A DNA stretch of 64,000 nt from Polyangia bacterium. Lineage in GTDB: Bacteria > Myxococcota_A > Polyangia > Fen-1088. Shown piece after piece: positions 14,686 through 30,637 of this stretch; within the stretch, counting starts at the first letter, position 1; each line of letters starts with the position of its first letter. The translations under genes were made by a program, and so were the position numbers. Location: assembly GCA_036267635.1 (NCBI GenBank), contig DATAVR010000017.1:2912-66911 (forward strand), given 5' to 3'. The notes beneath the pieces were generated by a model. It did no database searches. It saw nothing but the letters and a program-made list of their open reading frames with translations, and was not told where the DNA came from.

Positions 14686-14711
14686 CGGCGCTTCGGCCGC
14701 CAAAGGCCCGT

Positions 14712-14727
14712 GTGCAAAACCTTGCAC
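14712..14727. promoter_or_regulatory. Palindromic candidate operator GTGCAA-N4-TTGCAC
   Basis: Perfect 6+6 inverted repeat in the AT-richer intergenic region about 135 bp upstream of the large lipoprotein gene. Confidence 0.35.
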
Positions 14728-14861
14728 GCTCGCCCGGCAATCAAACGGCGTTACAAATCTGCCGACGGCGACGACGAAGCTGGACTTCCAGATTGGCGCT
14801 CTTGTACGTTACGCCCCGTCCGTCAGTCGCAAAAACGCAGTTTAGTGTGAAGGGAGCTACC

Positions 14862-17800
14862 GTGGGGATCCGTCGGGGGTTCGTGGTCGGTTGTGGTCTG
14901 TTGGGCGCAGTGTGGACCGTGGGATGCGTGGTTCCGTCTTCTCCAGACGAGCCCGCCGCGACGACGCGGGTGCAATCCGCCGTCAGCGGATTCGCGGGCG
15001 TCCTCACCCAGCATAACGATCTGGGTCGCACGGGCGCCAACCTGAGCGAGACGATCCTCAACACCAGCAACGTCAAGGTCGGGACCTTCGGCAAGCTGCA
15101 CGCGCTGGCCGTCACCGGCCAGGTCTACGCGCAGCCGCTGTACATGCCGAGCATCCAGACCACCAACGGGATCAAGAACCTCGTCTTCATCGCCACCGAG
15201 GCCAACGACGTCTATGCCTACAACGCCGACAGCCCCTGGGATCTCGTCTGGTCGCGCACCAACTTCGAGATGCCCTGGGCCTCGACCGCCTGCTCGAACA
15301 CGCAGCCGCTGCTCGGCATCAGCAGCACGCCGGTCATCGATCCGCTGTCGATGACGATGTACGTCGCCGCCAAGACGAACCAGGGCGGCGTGTTCAAGTA
15401 CATGCTCCACGCGCTCAATCTGACCAACGGCGCCGACCGGACCGGCAGCCCGATCGACATGTCGCTCGACGGGTCCCAACACCCGCTCACCGTCCCCGGA
15501 ACCGGCGACGGCGCTCCCGACGGCGGCTCGGGGATCACCTTCGATCCGATGCGGCAGCTCAACCGGGTCGGGCTCACGCTGTCGCAGGGCGTGCTCTTCG
15601 TCGGCTTCGCCAGCCACTGCGACACCAACAACTACCACGGCTGGATCCTGCGCTTCGACACCTCTTTCTCGCCGCCGAAGCCGCTGGCACCGTTCGTGAC
15701 CAACCCCAACACCGGCCACGGCGGCCTCTGGATGGGCGGCGCCGGCTTCAGCGTCGACGCCAACAACGATCTCTACTTCGTGAGCGGCGACGGCGAAAAA
15801 GGGAAGACCACCACCGACGGCAAGCAGCTGGCGAACGCCTTCGTCCGCCTGACCACGGTCGGCCCCACGCAGACGCCGACCGTGGGCAGCTGGTTCATGC
15901 CTTCGGACGTGGCGAACCTCGACACCCTGGACCAAGACCTCGGCGCGGCCGGGCCGCTGCTGATCCCGGGCACCAACCGCATCCTCGGCGGCGGCAAAGG
16001 CGGCATCTACTACCTCCTCGACCGAACCACCATGGGCGGGTTCGTCGCCGGCAGCACGCCCGAGGCGGCCGCCATCCAGCGCTTCGCGCCGACCGCCACC
16101 GGCAACTGGATCGTCGGCAGCCCCATCTTCTGGAACAGCCCCGCCGGCGCGCGCATCTACACCTGGCCCGGCGGCACGCCGCTCGCGTCCTACGCTTTCG
16201 ATCTGACCGCCCAGAAGTTCACCTCGACGACACCCCTCGCGCAGGGGACCGTCAACCCGACCGATCCGCAGGGGGGACACCTGTCGCTCTCGGCCAACGG
16301 CTCGCTCGCCGGCACCGGCATCGTCTGGGCCAACCACGGCCTGGCCAGCGAAGGGAACGGCATGCCCGTCGCTGGCGCGCTCTATGCCTTCAACGCCGAA
16401 AACGTCGCGCAGAAGCTCTGGGACTCGACGCTGGTCTCGAGTGATACGCTGACGAGCTACGCGAAGTACACGCCGCCGACGGTCGCCAACGGCAAGGTCT
16501 ACGTCGCCACCTTCTCGGGCGAGGTCGACGTTTACGGCCTCCTGGCGACGCCGACCGACGCCGGCGTGCGCGACGCGGCGCCCGACCTTCCGATCACCAC
16601 GGTGCTCCACTGCGGCGGCTTCGACGGCGGCGCGCCGCAACCGACGACCTGGACCTACGTCTACAACACCTACTTCGGCCCGGGGACCGCCGGCCACTGC
16701 GCCAACTGCCACGGGAACGCCGCGCCGGGCGGGTTCTCCACCGGAACCTCCCTGGCCGCCACCACCAAGGACACCTTCTATTCGGGGCTCGTCGCCATCG
16801 GGCAGATCTCGACGACGGCGGGGACCAGCTCCGCGCTCGGCAACCCGGCGCAATCGGCGCTGAGCTGGTTCGGGCCGATGCGGACGTCGAGCGCCGGGCT
16901 CCTCATGCCGCAGGATCAGCAGGCGCTGAACCCTGCCGCGGTCGCGGCCGTCTGCGGATGGGTCGCCGCCGGCGCGCTCGACGACGCGGCGAACGGGACG
17001 GCGTGCACCAGCGGATCGCAGTGCACCTCGGGATCGTGCGTCAACGGATTCTGTTGCAACACCACCTGCACCGGCACCTGCACCGCCTGCTCGGCCGCCA
17101 AGACCGGCGGGACCAACGGCACCTGCGCCAACGTCACCGCCGGCACGACCGACGCCCGCTGCGTGGCCGCCCCGCCCTGCGGCAACACCGGCGCCTGCAC
17201 CGCCACCGGCTCTTGCGCCCTGGCGCCGACCACCACCTCCTGCCGCGCGGCGAGCTGCGCCACCGGCACCGCCACCGCCGCCGCCAATTGCAACGGCGCC
17301 GGCGCCTGCCCGACCGCGGTCACCAGCGTCTGCACGCCGTTCATCTGCGGCGCCACCGCCTGCAAGACCACCTGCGCCGCCGACACCGACTGCGTGAGCG
17401 GCGACTTCTGCTCCGGCACCGCCTGCACCGCCAAGAAGGCCAACGGCGGCGCCTGCACCGCCACCGACCAGTGCACGTCGGGAGCGTGCGTCGACGGGTT
17501 CTGCTGCAACACCGCGTGCACGGGCGCTTGCACTGCCTGTTCGAACGCCAAGACCGGCGCCGCCAACGGCACCTGCGCCAACACCACCGCGGGGGCCAGC
17601 GACACCCGCTGCGTGACGGCCCCACCCTGCGGCAACACCGGCGCCTGCAGCGGCAGCGGCACCTGCGCCTTCGCCCCGACCACCACCTCGTGCCGCGCCG
17701 CCAGCTGCGCCTCCGGCACCGCCACCACCGCCGCCAACTGCAACGGCGCCGGCGCCTGTCCGACCGCCGTGACGAAGAGCTGCGCGCCGTTCATCTGCGG

Positions 17801-19859
17801 CGCCACCGCCTGCACCATCTCGTGCACGACGGCCGCCAACTGCGCAGCCAGCGCGCAGTGCACCGGCGGCCTCTGCGTCGCCTGCACCGGCACCACCTGC
17901 CTGGCCAACGGCGCCGCCTGCACCGCCGGCAGCCAGTGCACCACCGGCTCGTGCGTCGACGGGTTCTGTTGCAACACCACCTGCACCGGCACCTGCACCG
18001 CCTGCTCCGCCGCCAAGACCGGCGGGACCAACGGCACCTGCGCCAACGTCGCGGCCGGCACGACCGACGCCCGCTGCGTGGCCGCCCCGCCCTGCGGCAA
18101 CACCGGCGCCTGCACCGCCAGCGGCTCTTGCGCCCTCGCGCCGACCACCACCTCCTGCCGCGCGGCGAGCTGCGCCACCGGCACCGCCACCGCCGCCGCC
18201 AATTGCAACGGCGCCGGCGCCTGCCCGACCGCGGTCACCAGCGCCTGCACGCCGTTCATCTGCGGCGCCACCGCCTGCAAGACCACCTGCGCCGCCGACA
18301 CCGACTGCGTGAGCGGCGACTTCTGCTCCGGCACCGCCTGCACCGCGAAGAAGACGACCGGCAGCGCCTGCACGACGGCCAGTCAGTGCACCTCCGCGGC
18401 GTGCGTCGACGGCTTCTGCTGCAACAGCGCCTGCACCGGCGCCTGCACCGCCTGCTCGAACGCCAAGACCGGCGCCGCCAACGGCACTTGCGCCGGCACC
18501 ACCGCCGGCGCCACCGACACGCGCTGCGTGGCCGCTCCGCCCTGCGGCAACACCGGCACTTGCAGCGGCAGCGGCAGCTGCGCCGTCGCGCCGGCCACCA
18601 CCTCCTGCCGCGCCGCCAGCTGCGCGAGCGGTGTCGCCACCGCCGCCTCCAGCTGCAACGGCACCGGCGCCTGCCCGACGGCGGTCACCAGCTCCTGTGG
18701 CCTGTTCGCCTGCGGGACCACCGCCTGCAAGACCACCTGCGCCGCCGACACCGACTGCGCGAGCGGTGACGCCTGCTCCGGCACCACCTGCGTCGCCAAG
18801 CAGTCCAACGGGACCGCCTGCACCACCGCCACGCAATGTTCCTCGGGCGCGTGTGTCGACGGGCTCTGCTGCAACAGCGCCTGCACCGGCGCCTGCACCG
18901 CCTGCTCGAACGCCAAGACCGGCGCCGCCAACGGCACTTGCGCCAGCACCACGGCCGGCGCCACCGACACGCGCTGCGTGGCGGCTCCGCCCTGCGGGAA
19001 CACCGGCGCTTGCAGCGGCAGCGGCGCCTGCGCCGTCGCGCCGACCACCACCTCTTGTCGCGCCGCCAGCTGCGCCAGCAGCACCGCGACCGCCGCCGCC
19101 AACTGCAACGGCGCCGGCGCCTGCCCGACCACCGTCACGGCGGCCTGCACGCCCTACGTCTGCGGCACGACCGCCTGCAAGACCACCTGCACGACCGCCG
19201 CCGACTGCATCACCGGCGACAGCTGCACGACGGGCGTCTGCACGGCGCCGGCGGCGACCTGCACCGCGGCGATCGCCGTCGTGGACGACTTCGAGGACGA
19301 CAACAACCAGATCAGACTGCTCGACGGTCGCAACGGCCCGCTCTACACCTACGCCGACACGACCGGCTCGACCATCACGCCGGCCGCGGGCGCCATCTTC
19401 GCGCCGACCGCGCCGGGCGACGTCACGCCGAAGTTCGCGGCGCACGTCTCGGGCAAGCTGTCGACCGCCGCTACGGTGTGGGCCGGCTTCGGCATGGACT
19501 TCCTGACGCCGAAGGCGCTCTACAACGCCTCGAAGTACACCGGCATCTCGTTCTACGCCAAGAAGGGCTCCTCGACCGCCTCGAGCGCCGTCCGGGTGAA
19601 GGTGCCCGACCGCAACACCGATCCGACGGGCGGCGTCTGCACCTCCTGCTCGAACGACTTCGGCTCCGACCTGACGCTGACGACCACCTGGACCAAGTTC
19701 ACCCTCCCGTTCACCAGCCTGACCCAGCAGGCCGGTTGGGGCGCGCCCCGCCCCGCCCACCTCGATCCGACCGGCGTCGTGGCCGTGCAATTTCAGGTGA
19801 CGGCCGCGGGCGCCAACTACGACATCTGGCTCGACGACGTCACGTTCACCTGCAACTGA
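14862..19859 (+). CDS. 1665-aa modular lipoprotein: PQQ-type beta-propeller, c-type cytochrome domain, five Cys-rich repeats, CBM11/CIA30-like domain
   Basis: AAGGGAG SD before GTG 14862; lipobox TVGC; VLTQHND..RTGAN..ET.L...NV...FGKL propeller start; CANCH at 16698-16712 with later LMP and W...GA; repeats; C-terminal VDDFED...G.W/Y..Y.D...WAG.G...Y.GISF.AK...W.KF..PF..L...Q.W domain. Confidence 0.85.
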   Translation: MGIRRGFVVGCGLLGAVWTVGCVVPSSPDEPAATTRVQSAVSGFAGVLTQHNDLGRTGANLSETILNTSNVKVGTFGKLHALAVTGQVYAQPLYMPSIQTTNGIKNLVFIATEANDVYAYNADSPWDLVWSRTNFEMPWASTACSNTQPLLGISSTPVIDPLSMTMYVAAKTNQGGVFKYMLHALNLTNGADRTGSPIDMSLDGSQHPLTVPGTGDGAPDGGSGITFDPMRQLNRVGLTLSQGVLFVGFASHCDTNNYHGWILRFDTSFSPPKPLAPFVTNPNTGHGGLWMGGAGFSVDANNDLYFVSGDGEKGKTTTDGKQLANAFVRLTTVGPTQTPTVGSWFMPSDVANLDTLDQDLGAAGPLLIPGTNRILGGGKGGIYYLLDRTTMGGFVAGSTPEAAAIQRFAPTATGNWIVGSPIFWNSPAGARIYTWPGGTPLASYAFDLTAQKFTSTTPLAQGTVNPTDPQGGHLSLSANGSLAGTGIVWANHGLASEGNGMPVAGALYAFNAENVAQKLWDSTLVSSDTLTSYAKYTPPTVANGKVYVATFSGEVDVYGLLATPTDAGVRDAAPDLPITTVLHCGGFDGGAPQPTTWTYVYNTYFGPGTAGHCANCHGNAAPGGFSTGTSLAATTKDTFYSGLVAIGQISTTAGTSSALGNPAQSALSWFGPMRTSSAGLLMPQDQQALNPAAVAAVCGWVAAGALDDAANGTACTSGSQCTSGSCVNGFCCNTTCTGTCTACSAAKTGGTNGTCANVTAGTTDARCVAAPPCGNTGACTATGSCALAPTTTSCRAASCATGTATAAANCNGAGACPTAVTSVCTPFICGATACKTTCAADTDCVSGDFCSGTACTAKKANGGACTATDQCTSGACVDGFCCNTACTGACTACSNAKTGAANGTCANTTAGASDTRCVTAPPCGNTGACSGSGTCAFAPTTTSCRAASCASGTATTAANCNGAGACPTAVTKSCAPFICGATACTISCTTAANCAASAQCTGGLCVACTGTTCLANGAACTAGSQCTTGSCVDGFCCNTTCTGTCTACSAAKTGGTNGTCANVAAGTTDARCVAAPPCGNTGACTASGSCALAPTTTSCRAASCATGTATAAANCNGAGACPTAVTSACTPFICGATACKTTCAADTDCVSGDFCSGTACTAKKTTGSACTTASQCTSAACVDGFCCNSACTGACTACSNAKTGAANGTCAGTTAGATDTRCVAAPPCGNTGTCSGSGSCAVAPATTSCRAASCASGVATAASSCNGTGACPTAVTSSCGLFACGTTACKTTCAADTDCASGDACSGTTCVAKQSNGTACTTATQCSSGACVDGLCCNSACTGACTACSNAKTGAANGTCASTTAGATDTRCVAAPPCGNTGACSGSGACAVAPTTTSCRAASCASSTATAAANCNGAGACPTTVTAACTPYVCGTTACKTTCTTAADCITGDSCTTGVCTAPAATCTAAIAVVDDFEDDNNQIRLLDGRNGPLYTYADTTGSTITPAAGAIFAPTAPGDVTPKFAAHVSGKLSTAATVWAGFGMDFLTPKALYNASKYTGISFYAKKGSSTASSAVRVKVPDRNTDPTGGVCTSCSNDFGSDLTLTTTWTKFTLPFTSLTQQAGWGAPRPAHLDPTGVVAVQFQVTAAGANYDIWLDDVTFTCN
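16989..19250 (+). repeat. Five tandem intragenic repeats of about 450 nt (150 aa, 24 Cys each)
   Basis: Units start at about 16989, 17439, 17904, 18354, 18804; units 1 and 3 are near-identical in DNA. Confidence 0.92.
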
Positions 19860-19922: not shown

Positions 19923-19950
19923 CCGCGACCCACCCCCTGCTGGGTCGCGG
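19923..19950 (+). terminator. Hairpin, possible intrinsic terminator
   Basis: CCGCGACCCA-8 nt loop-TGGGTCGCGG followed by TGTATT, downstream of the large lipoprotein gene. Confidence 0.45.
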
Positions 19951-20087
19951 TGTATTCGAGCGTCTCGCCTGCCCGCGCCGCACAGGGCCCGCGATCTCAG
20001 CCCAGAACGGAGGCCCCCGGAACCTTCGTCGCGGCGGTCCGAGATTCATCAGGCTCCCTCGCGCGAAGGGATCTAGAATTGGGGCAC

Positions 20088-20417
20088 ATGGAAGAGACTG
20101 CGTTCAATCCCAAACGGCGCCTCTGCCCCGACGGCAGCTGCGTGGGCGTCCTTGGTGCCGACGGGCGCTGCAGCGTTTGCCGGCGCTCCGCGGGAGCGGG
20201 TGGCGACTCGCCAGCTGAGTCGTTTGCCGATTCGTCCGGCGATACGTCTGCTGAGATCTTGGCCGCCGCCGGCGATGACGACGCGCGCGCCTCCGAGAGA
20301 GGGGACGGAGCGAGCTCCGGCTTCGATCCGAGGCGCCGGCTGTGTGACGACGGGAGCTGCGTCGGCGTGGTGGGCGCCACCGGAGTCTGTGGCACCTGCG
20401 GTCGGAGAGCGGACTAG
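20088..20417 (+). CDS. Small protein with duplicated 4-Cys motif (putative double zinc finger)
   Basis: FNPKRRLCPDGSCVGVLGADGRCSVC and FDPRRRLCDDGSCVGVVGATGVCGTC joined by an acidic linker. Confidence 0.72.
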   Translation: MEETAFNPKRRLCPDGSCVGVLGADGRCSVCRRSAGAGGDSPAESFADSSGDTSAEILAAAGDDDARASERGDGASSGFDPRRRLCDDGSCVGVVGATGVCGTCGRRAD

Positions 20418-20418
20418 C

Positions 20419-20778
20419 GTGCCGAGCGTCGCTGTCGTCGGGGCCTCGAGCGCACCGCAGAAGTTCGGCAACAAGGCGGTCCGCGCCTACCTGCGCCGGG
20501 GCTGGACGGTCTACCCGGTGAATCCCAACGAAAAGACGATCGAAGGGCTGCCGGTCTACGCCCGCGTCGAGGATCTGCCGGCCGGCGTGGAGCGCTTCTC
20601 GCTCTACGTGCCGCCCTCCGTCGGGATCACGCTGCTGGAGGCGATCAAGAGCAAGCAGCCGAAGGAGGTCTATCTCAACCCGGGCTCCGAGAGCGACGAG
20701 CTCATCGCCCGCGCCGAGACGTTGGGCCTGGAACCGATCCTCGCCTGTTCGATCATCGAGATCGGCGAGCGGCCTTGA
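20419..20778 (+). CDS. CoA-binding domain protein (YccU-like)
   Basis: VAVVGAS..PQKFG.KAV......G.TVYPVNP....IEG, LNPG, C..I; GTG start 1 nt after the upstream stop. Confidence 0.85.
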   Translation: MPSVAVVGASSAPQKFGNKAVRAYLRRGWTVYPVNPNEKTIEGLPVYARVEDLPAGVERFSLYVPPSVGITLLEAIKSKQPKEVYLNPGSESDELIARAETLGLEPILACSIIEIGERP

Positions 20779-20797: not shown

Positions 20798-21730
20798 ATG
20801 CCGGCTTACGCGGTCAACAGCATGCTCGATCTCATCGGCGGGACGCCGCTGGTGAGGCTGCGCCACCTCGTCGACCCGACGATGGCCGACGTGTTCTGCA
20901 AGTGCGAGCAGTTCAACCCGGGCGGTTCGCTCAAGGATCGGGTGGCGCTCTCGATGATCGAGGCGGGCGAGCGCGACGGAAAGCTCACGCCGGGAGAGTC
21001 GGTGATCATCGAGCCGACCTCCGGCAACACCGGCGTCGGGCTGGCGCTGGTGTCGGCGGCCAAGCGCTATCGCCTCATCCTGACAATGCCCGACAACATG
21101 TCGCTCGAGCGGCGCGCGCTGCTCAAGGCCTACGGGGCCGAGCTGCACCTGACGCCGGCGGCGGCGGTCATGCGCGGCGCGGTCGAGCGCGCCCAAGAAC
21201 TCGCCCGCGATTACCCGCACGCCTTCATGCCGCAGCAATTCAACAACCCGGCCAACGTCGCCGCGCACTACCGCACGACGGGCCCCGAGATCGTCGCCCA
21301 GCTCGGCAACCGCAGCCCGGACGCCTTCGTGCACGGCGTGGGGACGGGCGGGACGATCACCGGCGTCGGGCGGGTGCTGCGGGAGCTGCGCCCCGACGTG
21401 CGCATCGTGGCGGTCGAGCCGGACAAGAGCGCCGTGCTGTCGGGCGGACCGCCGGGCGAGCACCGGATCGACGGCATCGGCGCCGGGTTCGTGCCGGCCA
21501 TCCTCGACAGAGCCGTGCTCTCGGAGGTGCGGACGATCTCCGAAGGCGACGCGCAGCGGACCAAGCTGGCGCTGGCGCGGCGCGAGGGGCTGCTGGTCGG
21601 CATCTCCGCCGGCGCCTCGGTGAAGATCGCGCTCGACGTCGCGCGCGAGCTCGGGCCCGGCAAGACCGTCGTCACCATCCTCTGCGACACCGGCGAGCGG
21701 TACTTCTCGTCGGACGCCTATTTCGAGTAA
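20798..21730 (+). CDS. cysK: Cysteine synthase A (PLP)
   Basis: NPGGSLKDR (PLP Lys), EPTSGNTG, QQFNNPAN, GVGTGGT, H.I.GIGAGF.P, DTGERY.S. Confidence 0.9.
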   Translation: MPAYAVNSMLDLIGGTPLVRLRHLVDPTMADVFCKCEQFNPGGSLKDRVALSMIEAGERDGKLTPGESVIIEPTSGNTGVGLALVSAAKRYRLILTMPDNMSLERRALLKAYGAELHLTPAAAVMRGAVERAQELARDYPHAFMPQQFNNPANVAAHYRTTGPEIVAQLGNRSPDAFVHGVGTGGTITGVGRVLRELRPDVRIVAVEPDKSAVLSGGPPGEHRIDGIGAGFVPAILDRAVLSEVRTISEGDAQRTKLALARREGLLVGISAGASVKIALDVARELGPGKTVVTILCDTGERYFSSDAYFE

Positions 21731-21740
21731 GGGGCCGCGA

Positions 21741-22472
21741 GTGAGCTCCCCGCCGGCCGTGTTGATCCTGGGGGCCGGCGGTCTCGGCTGTCCGGCGGCG
21801 CTGGCGCTGGCGGCGGGCGGCGTCGCGCGGATCGGCGTGGTCGACGACGACCGCGTCGACACCACGAACCTCCACCGCCAGATCCTGTTTTCCGACGCCG
21901 ACGTCGGTGAAGCGAAGGCGACCGCGTTCGCGCGGGCCCTGGCCCGGCGTTTTCCGACCGTCGAGGTGACGCCGCACGCCGTTCGCTTCGAGGTGGAGAA
22001 CGCGCGGGCGCTGGTCGCCGCGTATGACGTCATCGTCGACGGGACCGACAACTTCGCGGCCAAGTTCCTGGCCAACGACGCGGCCGTGCTCTGCGGCAAA
22101 CCGCTGGTCCACGGTGCCGCGGTCGCGCTGGGGGGGCAGATGCTCACCGTCCCCGCCGGCGGGCGCCCCTGTTACCGGTGCCTCTTCGAGGAGCCGCCCC
22201 CTGCGGGCGTCGGCCCCTCGTGTGCGGAAGCTGGCGTGCTGGGTCCGGTGCCGGGCGTCATCGGAGCCTTGCTGGGGGTGGAGGCCGCCCGGCTGGCCAA
22301 AGGCGAAACTCCCGCTTTCGTTGGGCGATTGGTCCAGTATGATTCCCGTTCGATGTCGGTCCGGACCGTCCGCTTCAACCCCAACCCGCTGTGCGCCGTC
22401 TGCGGCCCCGAGGCGCGCATCCGCGACCTGTCGGCCGCCGAGTACCCGGCCGCTGACTGTGCAACACCATGA
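21741..22472 (+). CDS. moeB: ThiF/MoeB-family adenylyltransferase (E1-like), catalytic motifs intact, N-terminal RYxRQ helix absent
   Basis: GAGGLG, DDDRVD.TNLHRQ, K, DGTDN, CYRC, SCAEAGV, CAVC; no rhodanese domain. Confidence 0.88.
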   Translation: MSSPPAVLILGAGGLGCPAALALAAGGVARIGVVDDDRVDTTNLHRQILFSDADVGEAKATAFARALARRFPTVEVTPHAVRFEVENARALVAAYDVIVDGTDNFAAKFLANDAAVLCGKPLVHGAAVALGGQMLTVPAGGRPCYRCLFEEPPPAGVGPSCAEAGVLGPVPGVIGALLGVEAARLAKGETPAFVGRLVQYDSRSMSVRTVRFNPNPLCAVCGPEARIRDLSAAEYPAADCATP

Positions 22473-23740
22473 GCACCGCCCCCGCCATGAACCAACCCTC
22501 GTACGTCCAGGGACTCAGCTGCCGTGAGTGCGGCACGCGCTACGACAAGGCCCCCATCCACGTCTGCGAAAACTGCTTCGGCCCGCTCGAGGTCGCCTAC
22601 GACTACGCCCGCATCGGCCAGGTGCTGACCCGCACCGCGATCGAGGCGCGTCCGAAGTCGATGTGGCGCTACGCCGAGCTGCTGCCGCTCGACGGTCCGC
22701 CCGCGGTCGGGCAGGCGAGCGGGATGACGCCGCTCCTGCGCGCCGATCGCCTGGCCAAGCGGCTCGGGCTCAAGGAGGTGTGGGTGAAGAACGACGCCGT
22801 CAGCTACCCGACGCTGTCGTTCAAGGATCGCGTCGTCTCGGTCGCGGTGTCGAAGGCGATCGAGTTCGGCATCGGCACCATCGCCTGCGCCTCGACCGGA
22901 AACCTGGCCAACGCCACCGCCGCCCAGGCCGCCGCGGCGGGGCTGCCGGCCGTCATCCTGGTCCCCTACGATCTCGAGCCGGCCAAGATCCTCGGCACCA
23001 GCATCTACGGCGCGCGCGTGGTCAGCGTCAAAGGGACCTACGACGACGTCAACCGGTTGTGCTCGGAGATCGCCGGTAAGTACGGCTGGGGCTTCGTCAA
23101 CGTCAACCTCCGCCCGTTCTATGCCGAGGGCTCCAAGAGCTACGCCTACGAGATCGCCGAGCAGCTCGGCTGGCGGCTGCCGGCGCACGTCGTCGTCCCC
23201 ATGGCCGGCGGCTCGCTGGTGACCAAGGTGGGCAAGGCGTTCGGCGAATTCGAGAAGTTGGGCCTCGTCGCGGCGCCCGCGCGCAAGCCGCGCATCCACG
23301 GCGCCCAGGCCGAGGGGTGCGCGCCGATCATCGACATGGTGCTCGAGAACCGCGATCATGTCCGGCCGGTCAAGACGCCGACGAGCATCGCCAAGTCGCT
23401 GGCCATCGGTAACCCGGCCGACGGCTTCTATGCCCGCCAGACGATCATCGGCTCGGGCGGCTGGGCCGCCAAGCCGAACGACGACGAGATCATCGCCGCC
23501 ATGCGCCTCCTGGCCGAGACCGAGGGGATCTTCACCGAGACGGCCGGCGGGGTGACGCTCGGCGCGGCGCTCAAGCTGATCGCCGGCGGTCAGATCGGCA
23601 AGGACGACGGGCCGGTGGTCATCTGCATCACCGGCAACGGGATGAAGACGCAGGACCCGCTGGTCGGCAAGCTGCCCAAGCCGGCGCTGATCGGCCCGCG
23701 CCTCGGTGATTTCGACGATCTGCAGGCGACCTGGACCTGA
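22469..23740 (+). CDS. thrC: Threonine synthase-family PLP enzyme with N-terminal Zn ribbon
   Basis: CREC...C..CFGPL, PT.SFKDR, STGNLA, N.RP.Y.EG.K, P.AGG.L, ETAGG, ITGNG.K; the true substrate is not certain. Confidence 0.8.
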   Translation: MSTAPAMNQPSYVQGLSCRECGTRYDKAPIHVCENCFGPLEVAYDYARIGQVLTRTAIEARPKSMWRYAELLPLDGPPAVGQASGMTPLLRADRLAKRLGLKEVWVKNDAVSYPTLSFKDRVVSVAVSKAIEFGIGTIACASTGNLANATAAQAAAAGLPAVILVPYDLEPAKILGTSIYGARVVSVKGTYDDVNRLCSEIAGKYGWGFVNVNLRPFYAEGSKSYAYEIAEQLGWRLPAHVVVPMAGGSLVTKVGKAFGEFEKLGLVAAPARKPRIHGAQAEGCAPIIDMVLENRDHVRPVKTPTSIAKSLAIGNPADGFYARQTIIGSGGWAAKPNDDEIIAAMRLLAETEGIFTETAGGVTLGAALKLIAGGQIGKDDGPVVICITGNGMKTQDPLVGKLPKPALIGPRLGDFDDLQATWT

Positions 23741-23764
23741 CCTGGACCCAAGAGGAGAGAATTC

Positions 23765-24037
23765 ATGGCCACCATCCGCATACCGACGCCGCTTCGCAAG
23801 CTGACCCAGGGCAAGGAAGAGGTCACCGCGACGGGCGCCACGATCGGCGCCCTCATCGCCAGCCTGGAGACGCAGTACCCGGGGATCAAGGAGCGGATCT
23901 GCGACGACAGCGGTCAGGTCCGCCGCTTCGTCAACATCTTCGCCAACGACGAAGACATCCGCTTCCTCAAGAATCTCGACACGGCCGTCAAGGATACCGA
24001 CGAGATCTCGATCGTTCCGGCGATCGCCGGCGGATGA
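23765..24037 (+). CDS. MoaD/ThiS/CysO-family ubiquitin-like sulfur carrier
   Basis: IRIPTPLR..T.G, RRFVNIF.N.EDIRF, C-terminal IVPAIAGG; strong SD AGAGGAG. Confidence 0.92.
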   Translation: MATIRIPTPLRKLTQGKEEVTATGATIGALIASLETQYPGIKERICDDSGQVRRFVNIFANDEDIRFLKNLDTAVKDTDEISIVPAIAGG

Positions 24038-24597
24038 CCCCCGAAGAGGTCCAACGTTACGCGCGCCAGATCGCGCTCCCCGAAGTCGGCCCCCAAGGAC
24101 AGGCGCGGATCTGCGCCGCGCGCGTGCTGATCGTCGGCGGCGGGCTCGCCGCGGAGACGGCCGCGTCGTATCTGAAGGCCGCCGGCCTGGGCGAGGTGAT
24201 CGCGCGCGAGCTCCCTCCGGGCGACGGTGAGGCTTGGATGACGGCGTTGGCGGGAATCGATCTGGTCGTCCGCGCCGGGTTCGACGACGACGCGATGCTG
24301 GGCGCGGCCAAGCGGCTCGGGCTGCCGGTGATCGTGGTGCGGGCCGCGGCCGCGCAGATCGATCTGCTCTCGTTCCCTCGACGGGCGCCGGCGCCCGAGG
24401 CCTCCCTGGAGGTCCCGCTGCAGGCAGCCGCGACGTCCACCCCGGGCGCAGCCGACGTTCTCGGCGGAGCGCTGGCGGCCGCCGAGGCGCTGGTCCGCCT
24501 GGCGCGCATCGACGGCGAAATTGGCAGGATTCGCCACCTGCGGCTCCCCCTCGACGGCGGCCTGCCGCTGGCGCAGGAGATCGGCGGGCGGGCGTGA
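24034..24597 (+). CDS. Degenerate ThiF/MoeB-like protein (predicted catalytically inactive)
   Basis: Keeps RYARQI.LPEVG..GQ and a Rossmann-like VLIVGGG, but lacks DxD/NLxRQ, the Mg-binding Asp, the Zn-binding CxxC pairs and the active Cys. Confidence 0.8.
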   Translation: MTPEEVQRYARQIALPEVGPQGQARICAARVLIVGGGLAAETAASYLKAAGLGEVIARELPPGDGEAWMTALAGIDLVVRAGFDDDAMLGAAKRLGLPVIVVRAAAAQIDLLSFPRRAPAPEASLEVPLQAAATSTPGAADVLGGALAAAEALVRLARIDGEIGRIRHLRLPLDGGLPLAQEIGGRA

Positions 24598-25565
24598 ACC
24601 AGCAACTCGACGTCGTCCGCCGCGCGCGCCTGCGCGTCGCCGAGCGGGTCACCGACCTCATCGGCGACACGCCGATCGTGCGGCTGCATTGCTTTGAACG
24701 CGATTCGCCCGGCGTCGAGCTGTGGGCCAAGTGCGAGTTCCTCAACCCAGGCGGCTCGGTCAAGGATCGCGCCGCCTACCAGATGATCCGCGACGCCATC
24801 CGCACCGGCGCGCTCAAGCCCGGGCAGACGATCATCGACTCGACGAGCGGCAACACCGGCGTCGCCTACGCGCTCATCGGCGGCGCGCTCGGCTACCCTG
24901 TCACGCTGGTGATGCCCGGCAACGTCTCCTGGGCGCGCCGCAAGATCACCGAGGCGTTCGGGACGACGCTGGTCTTCTCCGATCCGATGGAGGGTTCCGA
25001 CGGCGCGATTCGCCTCTGCCGCAAGATGGTCGACGACAACCCCGGCCACTACTTCTATCCCGACCAGTACTCGAACCTCTCCAACCCGCTCGGCCACTAC
25101 AACACCACGGGGCGGGAGATCTGGGAGCAGACCGAGGGGCGCGTCACCCACTTCGTGACCGGCATCGGCACCACCGGCACGGTGATGGGGACCGGACGCC
25201 GGTTGAAAGAATACCGCCGCGACATCGAGGTCTGGGCGGTCGAACCCGCGGACGCGCTGCACGGCCTCGAGGGGTTGAAGCACATGGAGAGCTCGCTCGT
25301 CCCCGCCATCTACCACCCCGAAGAGCTGAACGGCGTGCTGGCCATGGACACCGACGAGGCCTGGGACGTCTCCGAGCGGCTGGCCAAGGAGGAGGGCCTC
25401 CTGGTCGGCCACTCCTCGGGCGCGTCGCTGGCGGGCGGCCTGCGCATCGCCAGGCGGCTGGTCGCCGCCGGCAAACCGGGCTTCATCGTGACGCTGTTCC
25501 CCGATCGCGCCGAGCGCTACTTCGAGGCGCCGGTCCCGCCGAAAGCCGAGCAGTCGGTCACATGA
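24594..25565 (+). CDS. cysM: Cysteine synthase B family (CysM-like)
   Basis: NPGGSVKDR, DSTSGNTG, DQY.N..N...HY.TTG, GIGTTGT, GLEGLKHM, G.SSGA; GTG overlaps the upstream TGA. Confidence 0.87.
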   Translation: MNQQLDVVRRARLRVAERVTDLIGDTPIVRLHCFERDSPGVELWAKCEFLNPGGSVKDRAAYQMIRDAIRTGALKPGQTIIDSTSGNTGVAYALIGGALGYPVTLVMPGNVSWARRKITEAFGTTLVFSDPMEGSDGAIRLCRKMVDDNPGHYFYPDQYSNLSNPLGHYNTTGREIWEQTEGRVTHFVTGIGTTGTVMGTGRRLKEYRRDIEVWAVEPADALHGLEGLKHMESSLVPAIYHPEELNGVLAMDTDEAWDVSERLAKEEGLLVGHSSGASLAGGLRIARRLVAAGKPGFIVTLFPDRAERYFEAPVPPKAEQSVT

Positions 25566-26062
25566 GCGACATCGACGTCGGCGAGCTCCCGCCGCCCCAC
25601 CCCACGGTCTCTGCCGAGGCGCTGGCGGCCATGTACGCGCACGCGCGCCGCGACTACCCCAACGAATGCTGCGGCGTCGTCTTCGGGCCCAAGGGGACGC
25701 CGGCCGCCGACCGCGCCGTCGCCTGCGTCAACACGCAGAACGATCTGCACGCGCAGGATCCGGCGACCCACGCCCGCGACGCGCGCACCGCCTACAACCT
25801 CGGCGCGGGCGATCTGTTCAAGCTCGGCAAGAGCCTGCGTGGCGACACGCCCGCCAAGATCATCTACCACTCGCACGTCGACGTCGGCGCCTACTTCAGC
25901 GACACCGACCAGGCCGCCGCCGTCATGGACGGCGAGCCCTCTTACCCGGTCGAGTACCTGGTCATCGACGTCCGCCAGGACAGCGTTGGCGGCGCCGCAC
26001 AATTCGCCTGGGACGCGGCCGCCCGCCGCTACCTCGAAGTCGGCCGCTACCCGGGCGCCTGA
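25562..26062 (+). CDS. JAB/MPN+ metallopeptidase (Mec, CysO-cysteine peptidase-like)
   Basis: YPNECCG and YHSHVDVGAYFSDTD (HxH-x7-S-x2-D JAMM motif). Confidence 0.88.
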   Translation: MSDIDVGELPPPHPTVSAEALAAMYAHARRDYPNECCGVVFGPKGTPAADRAVACVNTQNDLHAQDPATHARDARTAYNLGAGDLFKLGKSLRGDTPAKIIYHSHVDVGAYFSDTDQAAAVMDGEPSYPVEYLVIDVRQDSVGGAAQFAWDAAARRYLEVGRYPGA

Positions 26063-26139: not shown

Positions 26140-27393
26140 ATGCGCACCCCCCGCGTCCTCGTCTCGTTGTTGGTTGCCGCGCCATTGCTGAGCCTGGGCC
26201 TCGTCGGCTGCGGCGGCGACGGCTCGAAGTGCTGCGATGTCATGACCGGACAGGGCGGCGACGGCGCGACTGGCGGCAGCTCCGCGACCGGCGGCGGCAG
26301 CGCGACCGGCGGTAACGGCGCGACCGGCGGCGCGGGCACGACCGGCGGCGCGACGGGGGGTGCCGCTGGCGCCAACGCATCGGGCGGCAACGGCGGCGCC
26401 AGCGCCAAGGGAGGCGCGGGCGGCGGCAGCGCGACCGGCGGTGCGGGCGGCGGCAAAGCTGGTACGGGCGGCAGCAACGCGTCCGGCGGCAACGGCGGCG
26501 CCAGCGCCAAGGGAGGCGCGGGCGGCAACAGCGGCGCCGGCGGGAAAGGCGGCGCGACCGCGACCGGCGGCACCGCGGGCGGCGGCAGCGCGGGCAGCTC
26601 GGGCGCCGCCGGCAGCGGTCCGCCCCAGACTGTCACCACCGCGGGCGGGACCTGGAACTTCGTCTGGTCGGACGAGTTCAACGGCAGCGGCGCGCCCGAC
26701 GCGTCGAACTGGGGCTACGAGAAGGGCTTCGTGCGCAATCAGGAGTTGCAGTGGTACCAGCCCGACAACGCGACGGTGGCGAACGGCCTTTTGACCATCG
26801 CCGCGCAGAAAGTCCACATCCTGAACCCCAACTACGTCGCCGGCAGCAGCAACTGGCAGACCAACCGGCAGTACTACGACTACACCTCGACCTCGATGAC
26901 GACGTCGGGGAAGCACTCGTTCCAGTACGGCCGCTTCGAGATGCGCGCCAAGATCGACATCCGCCAGGGGAGCTGGCCGGCGTTCTGGATCCTCGGCGAC
27001 GGCACCTCCTGGCCGGCCTCGGGCGAGGTCGACATCATGGAGTATTACGCCAACAAGGTGCTGGCGAACGTCTGCACGCCCGCCGGGAGCAACTGCACCT
27101 GGGACAGCACCAATCAGTCGCCGGCCTCGCTCGGCACCAACTGGGGCGACGATTTCCACATCTGGGCGATGGAGTGGGACGCCACGACCATCAACCTCTT
27201 CCTCGACGGCAAGCAGGTCAACACTTACGCCGTCTCCGCCGCCGGCAGCGGGTCGAGCAACCCCTACGACAGCAAGAAGTTCTACATCCTGGTCAACCTC
27301 GCCATCGGCGCCAACGGCGGCGACCCCACCAACACGACCTTCCCGATCAGCTACCAGGTCGACTACGTCCGCGTGTACCAGAAGGCGAACTGA
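26140..27393 (+). CDS. GH16 glycoside hydrolase lipoprotein with Gly-rich linker
   Basis: GAGGAGG SD; lipobox LVGC; WSDEFNG, NQELQWY, YGRFE.RAK, WPAFW, GEVDIME catalytic motif, FYILVNLAIG, VDYVRVYQ. Confidence 0.9.
   Translation: MRTPRVLVSLLVAAPLLSLGLVGCGGDGSKCCDVMTGQGGDGATGGSSATGGGSATGGNGATGGAGTTGGATGGAAGANASGGNGGASAKGGAGGGSATGGAGGGKAGTGGSNASGGNGGASAKGGAGGNSGAGGKGGATATGGTAGGGSAGSSGAAGSGPPQTVTTAGGTWNFVWSDEFNGSGAPDASNWGYEKGFVRNQELQWYQPDNATVANGLLTIAAQKVHILNPNYVAGSSNWQTNRQYYDYTSTSMTTSGKHSFQYGRFEMRAKIDIRQGSWPAFWILGDGTSWPASGEVDIMEYYANKVLANVCTPAGSNCTWDSTNQSPASLGTNWGDDFHIWAMEWDATTINLFLDGKQVNTYAVSAAGSGSSNPYDSKKFYILVNLAIGANGGDPTNTTFPISYQVDYVRVYQKAN
26374..26526 (+). repeat. 51-nt direct repeat (two copies, 102-nt period) in the GH16 linker
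   Basis: 26374-26424 and 26476-26526 both encode NASGGNGGASAKGGAGG with 2 silent differences. Confidence 0.7.
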
Positions 27394-27408
27394 TCCGAGG
27401 AGGTCCCC

Positions 27409-28428
27409 ATGCGCTTCTCCAACCTGCTCGTTTCGCTGGCGGTGGTCGGATTCGTTTCCGCGCTCGCCGGTGGTTGCGGCAACAGCACCCTCGGCACGTC
27501 GACCGGCAGCGGCGGCAGCTCGGCGACCGGCAGTGGCGGTGCGACGGGAACCGGGGGCGCGACGACCGGCAGCGGCGGGAGCACGGCGACCGGCGGCGCG
27601 ACCGGCACCGGCGGCGCGACCGGCACCGGCGGCAGCGGGGCGATGACCAGCGGGTGCGGCGCCACGTCGCCGGCGCTCGGTCCGTCGAACCCGCAGACGA
27701 TCAACGTGACCGACAGCAAGGGTACGGTCACCGCGCGTCAGTTCTACGTCTCCATCCCGAGCGATTACGATCCGACGAAGTCGTACCGGCTGATCTTCGC
27801 CTGGCACTACGCCGGAGGCACGGCTGCCACGCTGGCGGGCACCGGCTACAGCGGCGGCTACTATGGGGTGCAACCCAAGCTGCCCGAGGCGATCTACGTC
27901 GCGGGACAGGGGCTCGAGAGCACGGCGGGAGACGCCACCACCACCGGCTGGCCCAACACCAACGGCGGCGACATCGCCTTCCTGAAGGCGATGCTGACCT
28001 GGCTCGAGTCGAACCTCTGCGTCGACACGACCCGCATCATGGCCACGGGGATGAGCTACGGCGGCATCATGTCCGACACGCTCGGCTGTCAGATGCCCGA
28101 CGTCTTCCGCGCCGTCGCCGTCATGTCCGGTGCGCTCTACAGTTTCGGTCCCAGCTCGTCGTGCAAGAGCCACGACATCGCGGCCTGGATCACCCACGGC
28201 ACCGCCGACACCACCGTCGACATCTCGGGCGACGAGACCGCGCGCGATCAGTTTTTGGCCGACAACCACTGCGGCACGACGAGCACCGCCGTCGATCCCT
28301 CCCCCTGCCTGTCCTACGACGGTTGCGACAGCGGCTACCCCATCGTCTGGTGCCCCGTCGACGGCGAGGGCCACACCATTCCCACCTTCGCCGCCGGCGC
28401 CATCGCCACCTTCCTCGGGCAGTTCTAA
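27409..28428 (+). CDS. Alpha/beta-hydrolase lipoprotein (PHB depolymerase / CE1 esterase-like)
   Basis: Lipobox AGGC; L.F.WH..GG, GMSYGG nucleophile elbow, HGTAD, GHT.P. Confidence 0.8.
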   Translation: MRFSNLLVSLAVVGFVSALAGGCGNSTLGTSTGSGGSSATGSGGATGTGGATTGSGGSTATGGATGTGGATGTGGSGAMTSGCGATSPALGPSNPQTINVTDSKGTVTARQFYVSIPSDYDPTKSYRLIFAWHYAGGTAATLAGTGYSGGYYGVQPKLPEAIYVAGQGLESTAGDATTTGWPNTNGGDIAFLKAMLTWLESNLCVDTTRIMATGMSYGGIMSDTLGCQMPDVFRAVAVMSGALYSFGPSSSCKSHDIAAWITHGTADTTVDISGDETARDQFLADNHCGTTSTAVDPSPCLSYDGCDSGYPIVWCPVDGEGHTIPTFAAGAIATFLGQF

Positions 28429-28431
28429 GGG

Positions 28432-28478
28432 GGCTCGCGCGTCAGCGGTGCGCCCGCAGGTCGGCGACGCGCGAGGCC
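28432..28478 (+). terminator. GC-rich hairpin after the esterase gene
   Basis: CTCGCGCGTC (28434-28443) pairs with GACGCGCGAG (28466-28475); no U-tract. Confidence 0.3.
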
Positions 28479-28604
28479 TGACGGCGGTCGAGATCGTAGA
28501 GGGCCGTCGGGCGGAACGTAGGGGCCGGTCAGGCAGCGAAACATCGTTGAAAAGCTATACGGCGCCGCTGCGACCGTCCATCGAGTCGAGGTAGAGTAAC
28601 CCCC

Positions 28605-29621
28605 GTGACCGCCCCCCTCTTCCTGCGCGCCTGCCGTGGCGAGACGACCGAACGGACGCCGCTGTGGCTGATGCGGCAAGCGGGCCGCTATCTCCCCGAG
28701 TACCGGCAGGTGCGCGCGGGGGTCAGCTTTCTCGAGCTCTGCAAGACGCCCAAGCTGGCGGCGGAGGTGACGCTGCAGCCGATCCGGCGGTTCGGGTTCG
28801 ACGCCGCGATCCTGTTTTCCGATCTGCTGGTGCCGCTCGAGGCGATGGGGCTGGCGGTCGAATTCACCGACGAGGGGCCGCGGCTGCCGCAGCCGGTGCG
28901 GACCGCGGCCGATCTGGCGCGGGTGGCGCCCTTCGATCCGGCGGCGCGCACGCCGTTCGTGATGGAGACGATCGCGTCGGTCACGTCCGCGCTCGGTCCG
29001 GAGACGCCGGTCATCGGGTTCGCGGGCGCGCCGTTCACCGTCGCCACCTACGCCGTCGAAGGGAAGACCTCGAAGACCTTCGGCGAGACCAAGCGCCTTT
29101 TTTACGAGCGCCCGGCCGACGCGCACCGGCTGCTCGGCCTCATCGGCGAGGCGACGCGCGACTACCTGCTGGCCCAGATTCGCGCCGGCGCGGCGGCGGT
29201 GCAGCTGTTCGATTCGTGGGTCGGCGTGCTGTCGGCCGAGGACTTCGAGACCTTCGCGCTGCCGCCGACGACGGCGCTGGTGGCGGCGCTGCGGGCGACC
29301 GGCGTGCCGGTCATCTACTTCGCCAACGGCGCGGCGGCGATCCTCGATCGCGTGGCGCGCGTCGGGGCCGACGTCTACGGCGTCGACTGGCGGCTGCCGC
29401 TCGACGAGGCGCGCGTGCGGCTCGGCGATGCGCGCGCCGTGCAGGGGAACCTCGATCCGGCCGTCCTTCTGGGCCCGCCCGCCGAGATCGAGCGGCGCGC
29501 GCGCGACATCGTCCGGCGCGGTGGCAAGCGCGGCCACGTCTTCAACCTCGGCCACGGGATCACCCCCGACGTGCCGCTCGAGTCGGTCACTGCGCTGGTG
29601 GCCGCCGTCCGGGGCGCCTGA
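28605..29621 (+). CDS. hemE: Uroporphyrinogen decarboxylase
   Basis: P.WLMRQAGRYLPEY, DAAILFSDLL, IGFAGAPFT.A.Y, QGNLDP, FNLGHGI.P. Confidence 0.97.
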   Translation: MTAPLFLRACRGETTERTPLWLMRQAGRYLPEYRQVRAGVSFLELCKTPKLAAEVTLQPIRRFGFDAAILFSDLLVPLEAMGLAVEFTDEGPRLPQPVRTAADLARVAPFDPAARTPFVMETIASVTSALGPETPVIGFAGAPFTVATYAVEGKTSKTFGETKRLFYERPADAHRLLGLIGEATRDYLLAQIRAGAAAVQLFDSWVGVLSAEDFETFALPPTTALVAALRATGVPVIYFANGAAAILDRVARVGADVYGVDWRLPLDEARVRLGDARAVQGNLDPAVLLGPPAEIERRARDIVRRGGKRGHVFNLGHGITPDVPLESVTALVAAVRGA

Positions 29622-30637
29622 TGGCCGCCGCTGCACCGGCGGCGGCGCGCGAGAGAGAGCCGCTCGGCCTCATCGCGCTCAACCTGGGCGGCCCCGGATC
29701 GCTCGACGAGGTGGAACCGTTCCTGCGGCGGCTGTTCGGCGATCCCGACGTCATCCAGCTCGGCTGGGCGCGGCCGCTGCAACCGCTGCTCGCCTGGCTG
29801 ATCGCCCGCCGCCGGGCGGAGTTTTCGCGCGCCGCCTACGCGCAGATCGGCGGCCGCTCGCCGATCCTCGAGGAGACGACGGCCCAGGCGCGCGCGGTGG
29901 CCGAGGTTCTGGCGTCGCGCGGGATCGCCACCGTTCCCGTCGTGGCGATGGCCGCCTGGCACCCGCTGGCCGGCGCTGCGCTGGCGACGCTGGCCGCGGG
30001 CGGCGTTCGGCGCGCGGTGGCGCTGCCGTTCTATCCACAAGAGTCGCGCACCACGACCGGATCGTCGCTCGGCCAGCTCGAGGAGGCCCGCAAGCTCCAC
30101 CCGGAAATGGAGATCGCGCCGGTCACGCGTTACCCCGATGCCGAGGGCTATTTGCAGGCGGTCGTCGAGCGCATCGAGGAGGCCGCGCGCACGCTGCCGG
30201 CGGAGCACGCGGGCACCGCCCCGGTTCTGTTTTCAGCGCACGGGTTGCCGGAGTCGTACATCCGGCGCGGCGATCCATACCTCGACGACGTCCGGATCAC
30301 CGTCGAAGCGATCACCCGCCGCATGGGTCTCGGAGATCGCGCGCGGCTCTGCTTCCAGAGCCGCGTCGGCCCGCAGCGCTGGCTCAGCCCCACCACCGAG
30401 ACCGGGCTCGACGAGCTGGCCGCCGCCGGCCGGCCCGCCGTCATCGTCGTCCCCATCGCCTTCACCGGCGAGCACATCGAGACGCTGCAAGAGATCGACA
30501 TCCTCTACCGCGAGCGCGCCGAGAAGGCCGGCATCATCTACTTCGCCCGCGCCCGCACCGTCGGCACCCACCCGGCCTTCATCGCAACGCTGGCGGACCT
30601 GACCGAGGCCGCCGCCCGCGCGCGCGGCTGGACCTAG
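29621..30637 (+). CDS. hemH: Ferrochelatase
   Basis: LNLGGP, Y.QIGG.SP, PFYPQ.S..TTGSS, LFSAHGLP, GDPY, FQSRVGP..WL.P, F..EHIETL.EID. Confidence 0.93.
   Translation: MAAAAPAAAREREPLGLIALNLGGPGSLDEVEPFLRRLFGDPDVIQLGWARPLQPLLAWLIARRRAEFSRAAYAQIGGRSPILEETTAQARAVAEVLASRGIATVPVVAMAAWHPLAGAALATLAAGGVRRAVALPFYPQESRTTTGSSLGQLEEARKLHPEMEIAPVTRYPDAEGYLQAVVERIEEAARTLPAEHAGTAPVLFSAHGLPESYIRRGDPYLDDVRITVEAITRRMGLGDRARLCFQSRVGPQRWLSPTTETGLDELAAAGRPAVIVVPIAFTGEHIETLQEIDILYRERAEKAGIIYFARARTVGTHPAFIATLADLTEAAARARGWT

Follow-up and report, generated by a model that had tools for sequence, protein, structure and literature searches.

Sulfur-carrier E1 enzymes of Escherichia coli, MoeB with MoaD and ThiF with ThiS, are homodimers (PDB 1JW9, 1ZUD) in which the N-terminal arm of one subunit reaches into the ATP site of the partner subunit. 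Eukaryotic ubiquitin-like activation is typified by asymmetric E1s, in which one adenylation domain is dead and the other live, and their evolution from symmetric dimers of the MoeB/ThiF type is still to be explained. MoeB Arg14 and ThiF Arg11 have been named as arginine fingers from the neighbouring subunit, and in yeast the inactive Tcd1 completes the site of Tcd2 with Arg59, a finger reported to be non-essential (PMC13139853). BilD, the E1 of the Bil antiphage ubiquitination systems, has an inactive domain that donates Arg9, and outside BilD the bacterial E1-like proteins known are stated to be homodimers (Chambers et al., PMC10557695); BubCD is a homodimer. Here we describe two genes, designated E1-A and E1-B, that encode an adenylation subunit without the arm and a catalytically dead paralogue (as judged by motifs) with it. 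They lie in a stretch of 64,000 nucleotides (positions 2,912 to 66,911 of contig DATAVR010000017.1, assembly GCA_036267635.1), referred to below as the window, from a 194-contig draft genome of a Polyangia bacterium. An original prediction, made from the letters of the window alone, held that the two proteins form an obligate heterodimer with one active site, parallel to eukaryotic Aos1/Uba2.

Sequence and predicted fold of E1-A and E1-B

E1-A (243 amino acids) carries the full adenylation machinery, as had been predicted: GAGGLG, VDDDRVDTTNLHRQ, the Lys in GEAKA, DGTDN, CYRC, CAVC and SCAEAG were all found in the translation. Pfam ThiF (PF00899) matched with 218.5 bits against a cut-off of 28.1, over profile positions 23–237 of 238 only. 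With phmmer, residues 6–222 aligned to MoeB 33–248 and residues 6–223 to ThiF 30–245, and the alignment to Uba4 began at Uba4 residue 36; E1-A is therefore short of ∼30 N-terminal residues. It begins at the Rossmann strand, and no RYxRQ was found in-frame upstream, where the stop codon of a complete cysK gene lies 10 nucleotides away; on this point too the prediction held. Scores fell under every NCBIfam equivalog cut-off (PRK08762, 248.6 versus 449; PRK05690, 198.1 versus 266; TIGR02356, 187.2 versus 275), partly because the N-terminus is missing. The crossover loop has the length of that in MoeB. Neither a catalytic-Cys domain nor a ubiquitin-fold domain is present in the 243 residues, and Pfam and NCBIfam gave no E2-like match among the operon proteins (the remaining genome was not searched for E2).

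E1-B (187 amino acids) starts within the stop codon of the carrier gene, with the ATG overlapping the TGA as ATGA. Pfam ThiF gave 25.8 bits, below the cut-off of 28.1, over profile positions 1–47 only, and the NCBIfam MoeB models matched residues 2–55 (E = 7.5e-13). The first ∼55 residues align with PDB ThiF 1–58 and MoeB 7–59, and by ungapped coordinates of the profile hidden Markov model Arg11 of E1-B, within the RYARQ motif, is ThiF Arg11 and MoeB Arg14. The remaining active-site motifs are replaced or absent: GGGLA stands in place of GxGGxG, the NLxRQ-Lys segment is gone, and DLVVR is found at the Mg-Asp segment, where the invariant Arg80 occupies the position of the Mg-binding Asp (DxTDN). 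No CxxC pairs and no conserved Cys were found in the translation or in the homologue alignment. The presence of the RYxRQ helix, the loss of the nucleotide loop, NLxRQ segment, Mg-binding Asp, Zn sites and Cys, and the ATGA overlap had all been part of the original prediction and were confirmed.

Since E1-A covers ThiF profile positions 23–237 and E1-B positions 1–47, the sequences support the reading of the two proteins as complementary halves of an E1 function. The best NCBIfam model is the same for both (PRK08762), with E1-B matching at 121–174 and E1-A at 150–376.

E1-B was modelled with AlphaFold2 using a 112-sequence alignment, which gave a Rossmann-type fold with a mean predicted local distance difference test score (pLDDT) of 90.1 and a predicted TM-score (pTM) of 0.86. 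PDB matches of the model found with Foldseek were Uba4, ThiF, PaaA, MoeB, MccB, Uba5 and SAE1, at probability 1.00, with E = 2e-10 to 1e-8 and TMq 0.69–0.72 for Uba4 and ThiF. These values exclude a chance likeness of the predicted fold to ThiF, and the matches indicate that E1-B, as modelled, is a shrunken but whole E1 domain and not an N-terminal fragment joined to an unrelated protein. Low confidence was confined to the first 20 residues, which form the arm (pLDDT 61–70 in the monomer model); a segment that packs on a partner would be expected to behave in this way in a lone chain, although this is weak evidence. The segment DVLGGALAAAEALVRL, presumed to be a dimer helix in the original prediction, forms helix 139–157 in the model.

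Two further stretches of E1-B are conserved. At residues 80–87 (window 24271–24294), Arg80 is followed by GFDDDAM, invariant or nearly so, and at residues 167–175 (window 24532–24558) there is a conserved C-terminal RHLRLPLDG.

Conservation and distribution

Arg11 is invariant in 112/112 homologues (alignment A2) and in 32/32 E1-B-like proteins drawn from all of the operon layouts described below, down to ∼29% identity, so the arginine is conserved among orthologues. Over the 112 sequences, 14 alignment columns are invariant. A set of 5.8 billion proteins contained 209 homologues of 183–213 amino acids, of which the named ones all come from Polyangia metagenome-assembled genomes (MAGs); a set of 1.84 billion representatives contained 40 clusters (50% level) at E ≤ 1e-30. 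Against the window copy, and within the genus of the window, dN/dS (omega) for E1-B was 0.26–0.33, with 0.05–0.2 for flanking genes and ∼0.2–0.3 for E1-A. The open reading frame (ORF) was intact in all 54 genomes of the order that match at E ≤ 1e-15, two of the matches reading through a single TGA. E1-B is thus under purifying selection and is not pseudogene-like.

Complete loci were surveyed for the co-occurrence of N-truncated MoeB-type proteins with paralogues bearing RYxRQ. In all 30, distributed over four operon layouts, an armless active E1 was accompanied in the same operon, after the carrier gene, by an arm-bearing dead paralogue, and RYxRQ was absent in and upstream of the E1-A-type gene. 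The loci comprise 19 from the family of the window, four from MAGs labelled Binatia or Acidoferrales and seven from other families of Myxococcota. Stand-alone canonical E1s of the phylum (25/25) and E1s fused to a ubiquitin-like protein (Ubl; 2/2) keep RYxR[QH]. The pairing that the original prediction had proposed to look for is therefore found in several lineages; by motifs, one inactive and one active adenylation domain are encoded together, and the pair is kept in all four layouts.

Type 1 is the arrangement of the window and of its GTDB family; of the 89 genomes of this family, 54 have an E1-B that matches at E ≤ 1e-15, and genomes seemingly without it have a divergent copy, 29–39% identical, at the same position. 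In 19/19 complete loci the first element of the E1-A orthologue is the Rossmann strand and E1-B comes after the carrier gene, each E1-B also having the second Arg of R-x-x-R-[QH]. Some genera of this family (L053–L056; genomes G484 and G486–G488) have much shorter E1-B genes, of 98–157 amino acids from motif to stop. From these shortened genes, the C-terminal half of E1-B seems dispensable even in type 1; the 98-residue case may be a MAG frameshift. A sister genus has no split pair. Its carrier, with an AIAGG end, forms an in-frame fusion with a full-length E1 that has RYSRH; the ORF of 539–566 amino acids adjoins a CysM-like gene (L063:3954-5570(-) and L064:6642-8339(-)). In its gene order, the carrier followed by E1-B in the window looks like an unfused, degenerate version of this carrier-E1 fusion.

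Type 2 contains a second family of dead E1s, recovered by exhaustive profile search, in which the arm and both Zn CxxC pairs are kept and the ATP motifs are missing. The layout is ThiF - ThiS - CysM - dead ThiF in L072–L074, and in L162 it is ThiF - ThrC-like - ThiS - CysM - NIL - dead ThiF, with genes for sulfate uptake and ATP sulfurylase coming next. RYxRQ is missing from the active ThiF in 4/4 loci, and the open frame upstream is short or lacking. Binatia and Acidoferrales labels both occur in one type-2 cluster; the taxonomic assignment is soft, as the names come only from MAG labels within a single 90% cluster. An attempt to place type 2 taxonomically with the contig pattern QI[EA]RYSR[QH]I (A3) was rejected, all 80 of the 80 loci being canonical E1s; the pattern is common to ordinary MoeB.

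Separately, a NIL-domain protein was observed 5′ of the type-2 dead E1 (L162:4089-9407, and in L073 and L074 downstream of 5681), and after the dead E1 come a radical-SAM-like protein, an Na/sulfate symporter, a Usp protein and ATP sulfurylase. These neighbours link the split-E1 operon to sulfate assimilation.

Type 3 occurs in other families of Myxococcota and has the order armless E1 - Ubl - E1-B - JAB, with an E1-B of only 127–147 amino acids. A phylum-wide search with the E1-B profile returned mostly the N-termini of ordinary MoeB and MoeZ, and a few matches in short ORFs led to this type, which was found in 11 of 401 sampled genomes (eight genera, five families). Across the three types of E1-B only the first ∼55 to 60 residues can be aligned, and conservation is highest in the arm in every layout. 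Even the shortest E1-B proteins have both N-terminal helices and the first beta-alpha-beta unit with LNPD; besides this N-terminal part they retain only a helix after the crossover loop, equivalent to helix 139–157.

In a tree of 57 active domains, the clades of armless E1s are each monophyletic with long stems. A single origin of the split and several origins are not decided between by this tree (supports of the relevant branches, 88/46 and 83/70).

Proposed mechanism and alternatives

E1-A and E1-B probably assemble into a MoeB-like heterodimer with a single active site. In the mechanism we propose, the two would be paralogues produced by duplication of a MoeB-type E1 and subsequent complementary degeneration. 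E1-A would bind ATP and Mg and adenylate the C-terminal Gly-Gly of the operon carrier, as the first step to a carrier thiocarboxylate, and E1-B, which would not bind nucleotide, would provide the N-terminal helix pair with Arg11 in trans to E1-A. E1-A could have lost its own arm because the site that this arm would serve, that of E1-B, is dead. With arm and active site on two different gene products, there would be at most one active site per dimer. The thiocarboxylate would then feed the CysM-like and ThrC-like pyridoxal phosphate (PLP) enzymes, and the JAMM protease would free the product, as in the mycobacterial CysO/CysM/Mec+ route. The association of the two proteins, the contact of the arm with the E1-A active site and the downstream sulfur chemistry we infer.

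Several points weigh against this assembly. E1-like enzymes without the arm include MccB and PaaA. An armless E1 with the G-loop and NLxRQ also occurs in L027 (genome G087; ORF from 550), with a very long branch, outside the paired clades and with no partner visible in the 3-kb locus. Because the armless clades are each monophyletic and a shared origin is undecided, the 30 co-occurrences amount to about three to four independent clades and not to 30 independent events. E1-B is the fastest-evolving gene of the operon (∼75% identity, with neighbours at 91–96%), which fits a non-catalytic role. The conservation of Arg80, FDDD and RHLRLPLDG in type-1 E1-B goes beyond what an arm donor accounts for; these motifs may reflect a further contact, with the carrier or CysM for instance. 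The MoeB Arg14 and ThiF Arg11 fingers are reported to be non-essential for catalysis, and TcdA is without a finger (PMC13139853), so that E1-A might work as an armless homodimer. The original prediction is supported in part: the complementarity of the two halves stands; the word "obligate" over-reaches, as the fingers of MoeB and ThiF and Arg59 of Tcd1 are all reported to be non-essential.

The alternative that survives best, though we regard it as unlikely, is that E1-A is a self-sufficient homodimeric adenylase and E1-B a non-catalytic accessory, which docks the carrier or thiocarboxylate to CysM or ThrC or acts as a regulator, and whose N-terminal helices are conserved for that other interaction. 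The reports on non-essential or absent fingers favour it, as do the invariant motifs beyond the arm (R80, FDDD, RHLRLPLDG) and the constant adjacency of E1-B to the Ubl gene, often with CysM. However, it leaves unaccounted for the strict tracking of arm loss with a dead arm-bearing paralogue (30/30, versus 0/27 for the arm-keeping E1s) and the fact that, whatever the layout, no part of E1-B is better conserved than the arm with its exact finger Arg. The short forms, moreover, have lost the motifs that lie beyond the arm.

A functionless, decaying duplicate, whether a pseudogene or a remnant of gene fission, could also have lost all catalytic motifs, evolved fastest in the operon and become shortened in some lineages. 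This explanation of E1-B is highly improbable and is effectively refuted by the omega values, the ORFs intact in 54 genomes and more than 200 metagenomic homologues, the 14 columns invariant over 112 sequences and the confident fold prediction; the position and translational coupling of the gene are conserved as well. That the missing N-terminus of E1-A is an artefact of a wrong start codon, frameshift or assembly error, for which the draft state of the genome might speak, is scarcely credible and is refuted by the comparative data, since a complete cysK ends just upstream and the same truncated start recurs in 30 independent assemblies, several with stops or non-coding DNA immediately before it.

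Beyond the window, the evidence leans toward a class of two-gene bacterial E1s that has so far escaped recognition and is fairly widespread. Its members would consist of an armless active subunit and a dead arm donor that can shrink to ∼130 residues; the class would have four or more operon layouts and, if MAG labels are followed, extend over more than one phylum. The principle of an inactive paralogue giving an arginine is known; its division between two separate small genes of bacterial sulfur-carrier operons, in several layouts and lineages, appears to be new. A two-gene bacterial E1 was not described in the full-text literature searched, including Iyer et al. 2006; a mention in Burroughs et al. 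2009 is not excluded. If our reading is correct, duplication and complementary degeneration would constitute an independent bacterial route to an asymmetric E1 otherwise known from eukaryotes and BilD, and the pairs would offer a tractable bacterial model of its simplest stage, with separate small genes and neither a Cys domain nor an E2. Stages of degeneration can be seen, from Zn sites kept, to Zn sites lost, to half of the domain lost, and the minimal role of an inactive E1 subunit would be defined. The reading also bears on annotation: the names now given to dead paralogues are "ThiF family adenylyltransferase" or "hypothetical protein", and their armless partners fall below every NCBIfam equivalog cut-off.

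Operon and genome context

The window contains, at 20.1–26.1 kb, a densely packed plus-strand operon in DNA of ∼70% G+C (Table 1). Start and stop codons overlap as ATGA at E1-A/ThrC, Ubl/E1-B and CysM/JAB and as GTGA at E1-B/CysM. The overlaps on either side of E1-B suggest translational coupling, which supports the proposed heterodimer. As far as gene content goes, the set of CysO/CysM/Mec+-type parts is complete in the operon (GG-ended carrier, CysM-type PLP enzyme and JAMM protease). The CoA_binding_2 gene has the same operon position in related loci.

Table 1. Features of the E1-A/E1-B operon; positions are those of the window.
Feature	Position	Strand	Remarks
Small twin-Cys-motif protein	20088..20417 (within ORF 19950-20417)	+	Operon head
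CoA_binding_2 protein	20419..20778 (start codon approximate)	+	Pfam PF13380, 91.3 bits
CysK-type cysteine synthase	20798..21730	+	TIGR01139 cysK, 397.9 bits versus cut-off 350.95
E1-A, active MoeB/ThiF-type adenylation subunit (by motifs), without N-terminal RYxRQ helices	21741..22472	+	Pfam ThiF, 218.5 bits
ThrC-like PLP enzyme, N-terminal Zn ribbon	22469..23740	+	PALP, 223.7 bits; TIGR00260, 255.8 bits
MoaD/ThiS/SAMP-type sulfur carrier (Ubl), AIAGG end	23765..24037	+	Pfam ThiS, 64.9 bits; NF041918 SAMP1, 62.5 versus cut-off 60
E1-B, catalytically dead (by motifs) ThiF-fold paralogue with N-terminal arm	24034..24597	+	
RYARQ motif of E1-B; Arg11 codon 24064-24066, proposed trans arginine finger	24055..24069	+	
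CysM-type cysteine synthase	24594..25565	+	TIGR01138 cysM as best model, 325.9 bits, under cut-off 394.2; PALP, 216 bits
JAMM/JAB metalloprotease (Mec+-like)	25562..26062	+	Pfam Prok-JAB, 63.7 bits

The protein at the operon head has two near-identical C-x4-C-x9-C-x2-C motifs, RRLCPDGSCVGV..G.C..C. Because the E1 of the operon has no rhodanese domain, this protein could be a candidate sulfur-relay or metal-binding partner. The whole genome has three ThiF-family genes: E1-A, E1-B and, on contig C132, a rhodanese-MoeB fusion with its own LRYARH helix and all active-site motifs.

Other genes of the window were noted in passing. An ORF of 1908 amino acids at 14133–19859, unrelated to the E1 pair, has a beta-propeller-like region followed by many tandem Cys-rich modules (CNTxCTGxCxACS...). 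At 26140–30637, 3′ of the operon, the genes encode a GH16-type glycoside hydrolase, Gly-rich and lipoprotein-like, and an esterase-like protein; they are followed by hemE (28605–29621) and a ferrochelatase-like gene. The GH16 and URO-D (hemE) assignments are made by analogy with L004, where the operon has these neighbours on its 3′ side as well, so that synteny reaches past the operon.

Comparison with known systems

The operon resembles the mycobacterial CysO-CysM-Mec+/MoeZ system in having a GG-ended carrier, a CysM-type PLP enzyme, a JAMM protease and a MoeB-type E1. It differs in that MoeZ is a single full-length E1 fused to rhodanese, whereas the E1 of the operon is split and without rhodanese (the only rhodanese-MoeB of the genome being that on C132), and in that CysK, a ThrC-like enzyme and a CoA-binding protein are additional members of the operon.

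The fold is that of MoeB and ThiF and the same chemistry is expected, since E1-A has all of the adenylation motifs, the Zn CxxC pairs and the loop Cys, and the E1-B arm was aligned residue by residue with the N-termini of both enzymes. In MoeB and ThiF, however, arm and active site belong to one polypeptide, and the symmetric dimer has two sites; here these elements are split over two genes. Tcd1/Tcd2, the heterodimeric ct6A dehydratase, is likewise a pair derived by duplication within the ThiF family, with an arginine finger donated by the inactive member, but it is eukaryotic, acts on tRNA instead of a Ubl and has two subunits of near full length.

In the eukaryotic SAE1/SAE2 (Aos1/Uba2) and NAE1/UBA3 pairs, the inactive ThiF-fold subunit likewise keeps the N-terminal Arg helix, and the E1-B profile weakly matches the SAE1 N-terminus (E ∼0.003). 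SAE2 resembles E1-A in that its first Rossmann strand is at residue 19, with no arm. Unlike these enzymes, the window pair has no catalytic-Cys domain or ubiquitin-fold domain, there is no E2 among the operon genes, and a carrier of the MoaD/SAMP type is encoded in a sulfur operon of the Cys/Met type. E1-A groups with bacterial MoeB-type enzymes, and by this grouping the origin of the pair is bacterial and independent of the eukaryotic E1s. The parallel to Aos1/Uba2 drawn by the original prediction therefore stands at the level of sequence, SAE2 being armless and SAE1 matching E1-B; it is not unique among bacteria, as BilD shares it. In BilD, too, a bacterial E1 combines an inactive with an active adenylation domain, and the key Arg is supplied by the inactive one. 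All domains of BilD lie on one polypeptide (IAD-AAD-CYS), which conjugates proteins together with an E2, whereas the window has two genes, without a CYS domain, in a biosynthetic sulfur-carrier setting.

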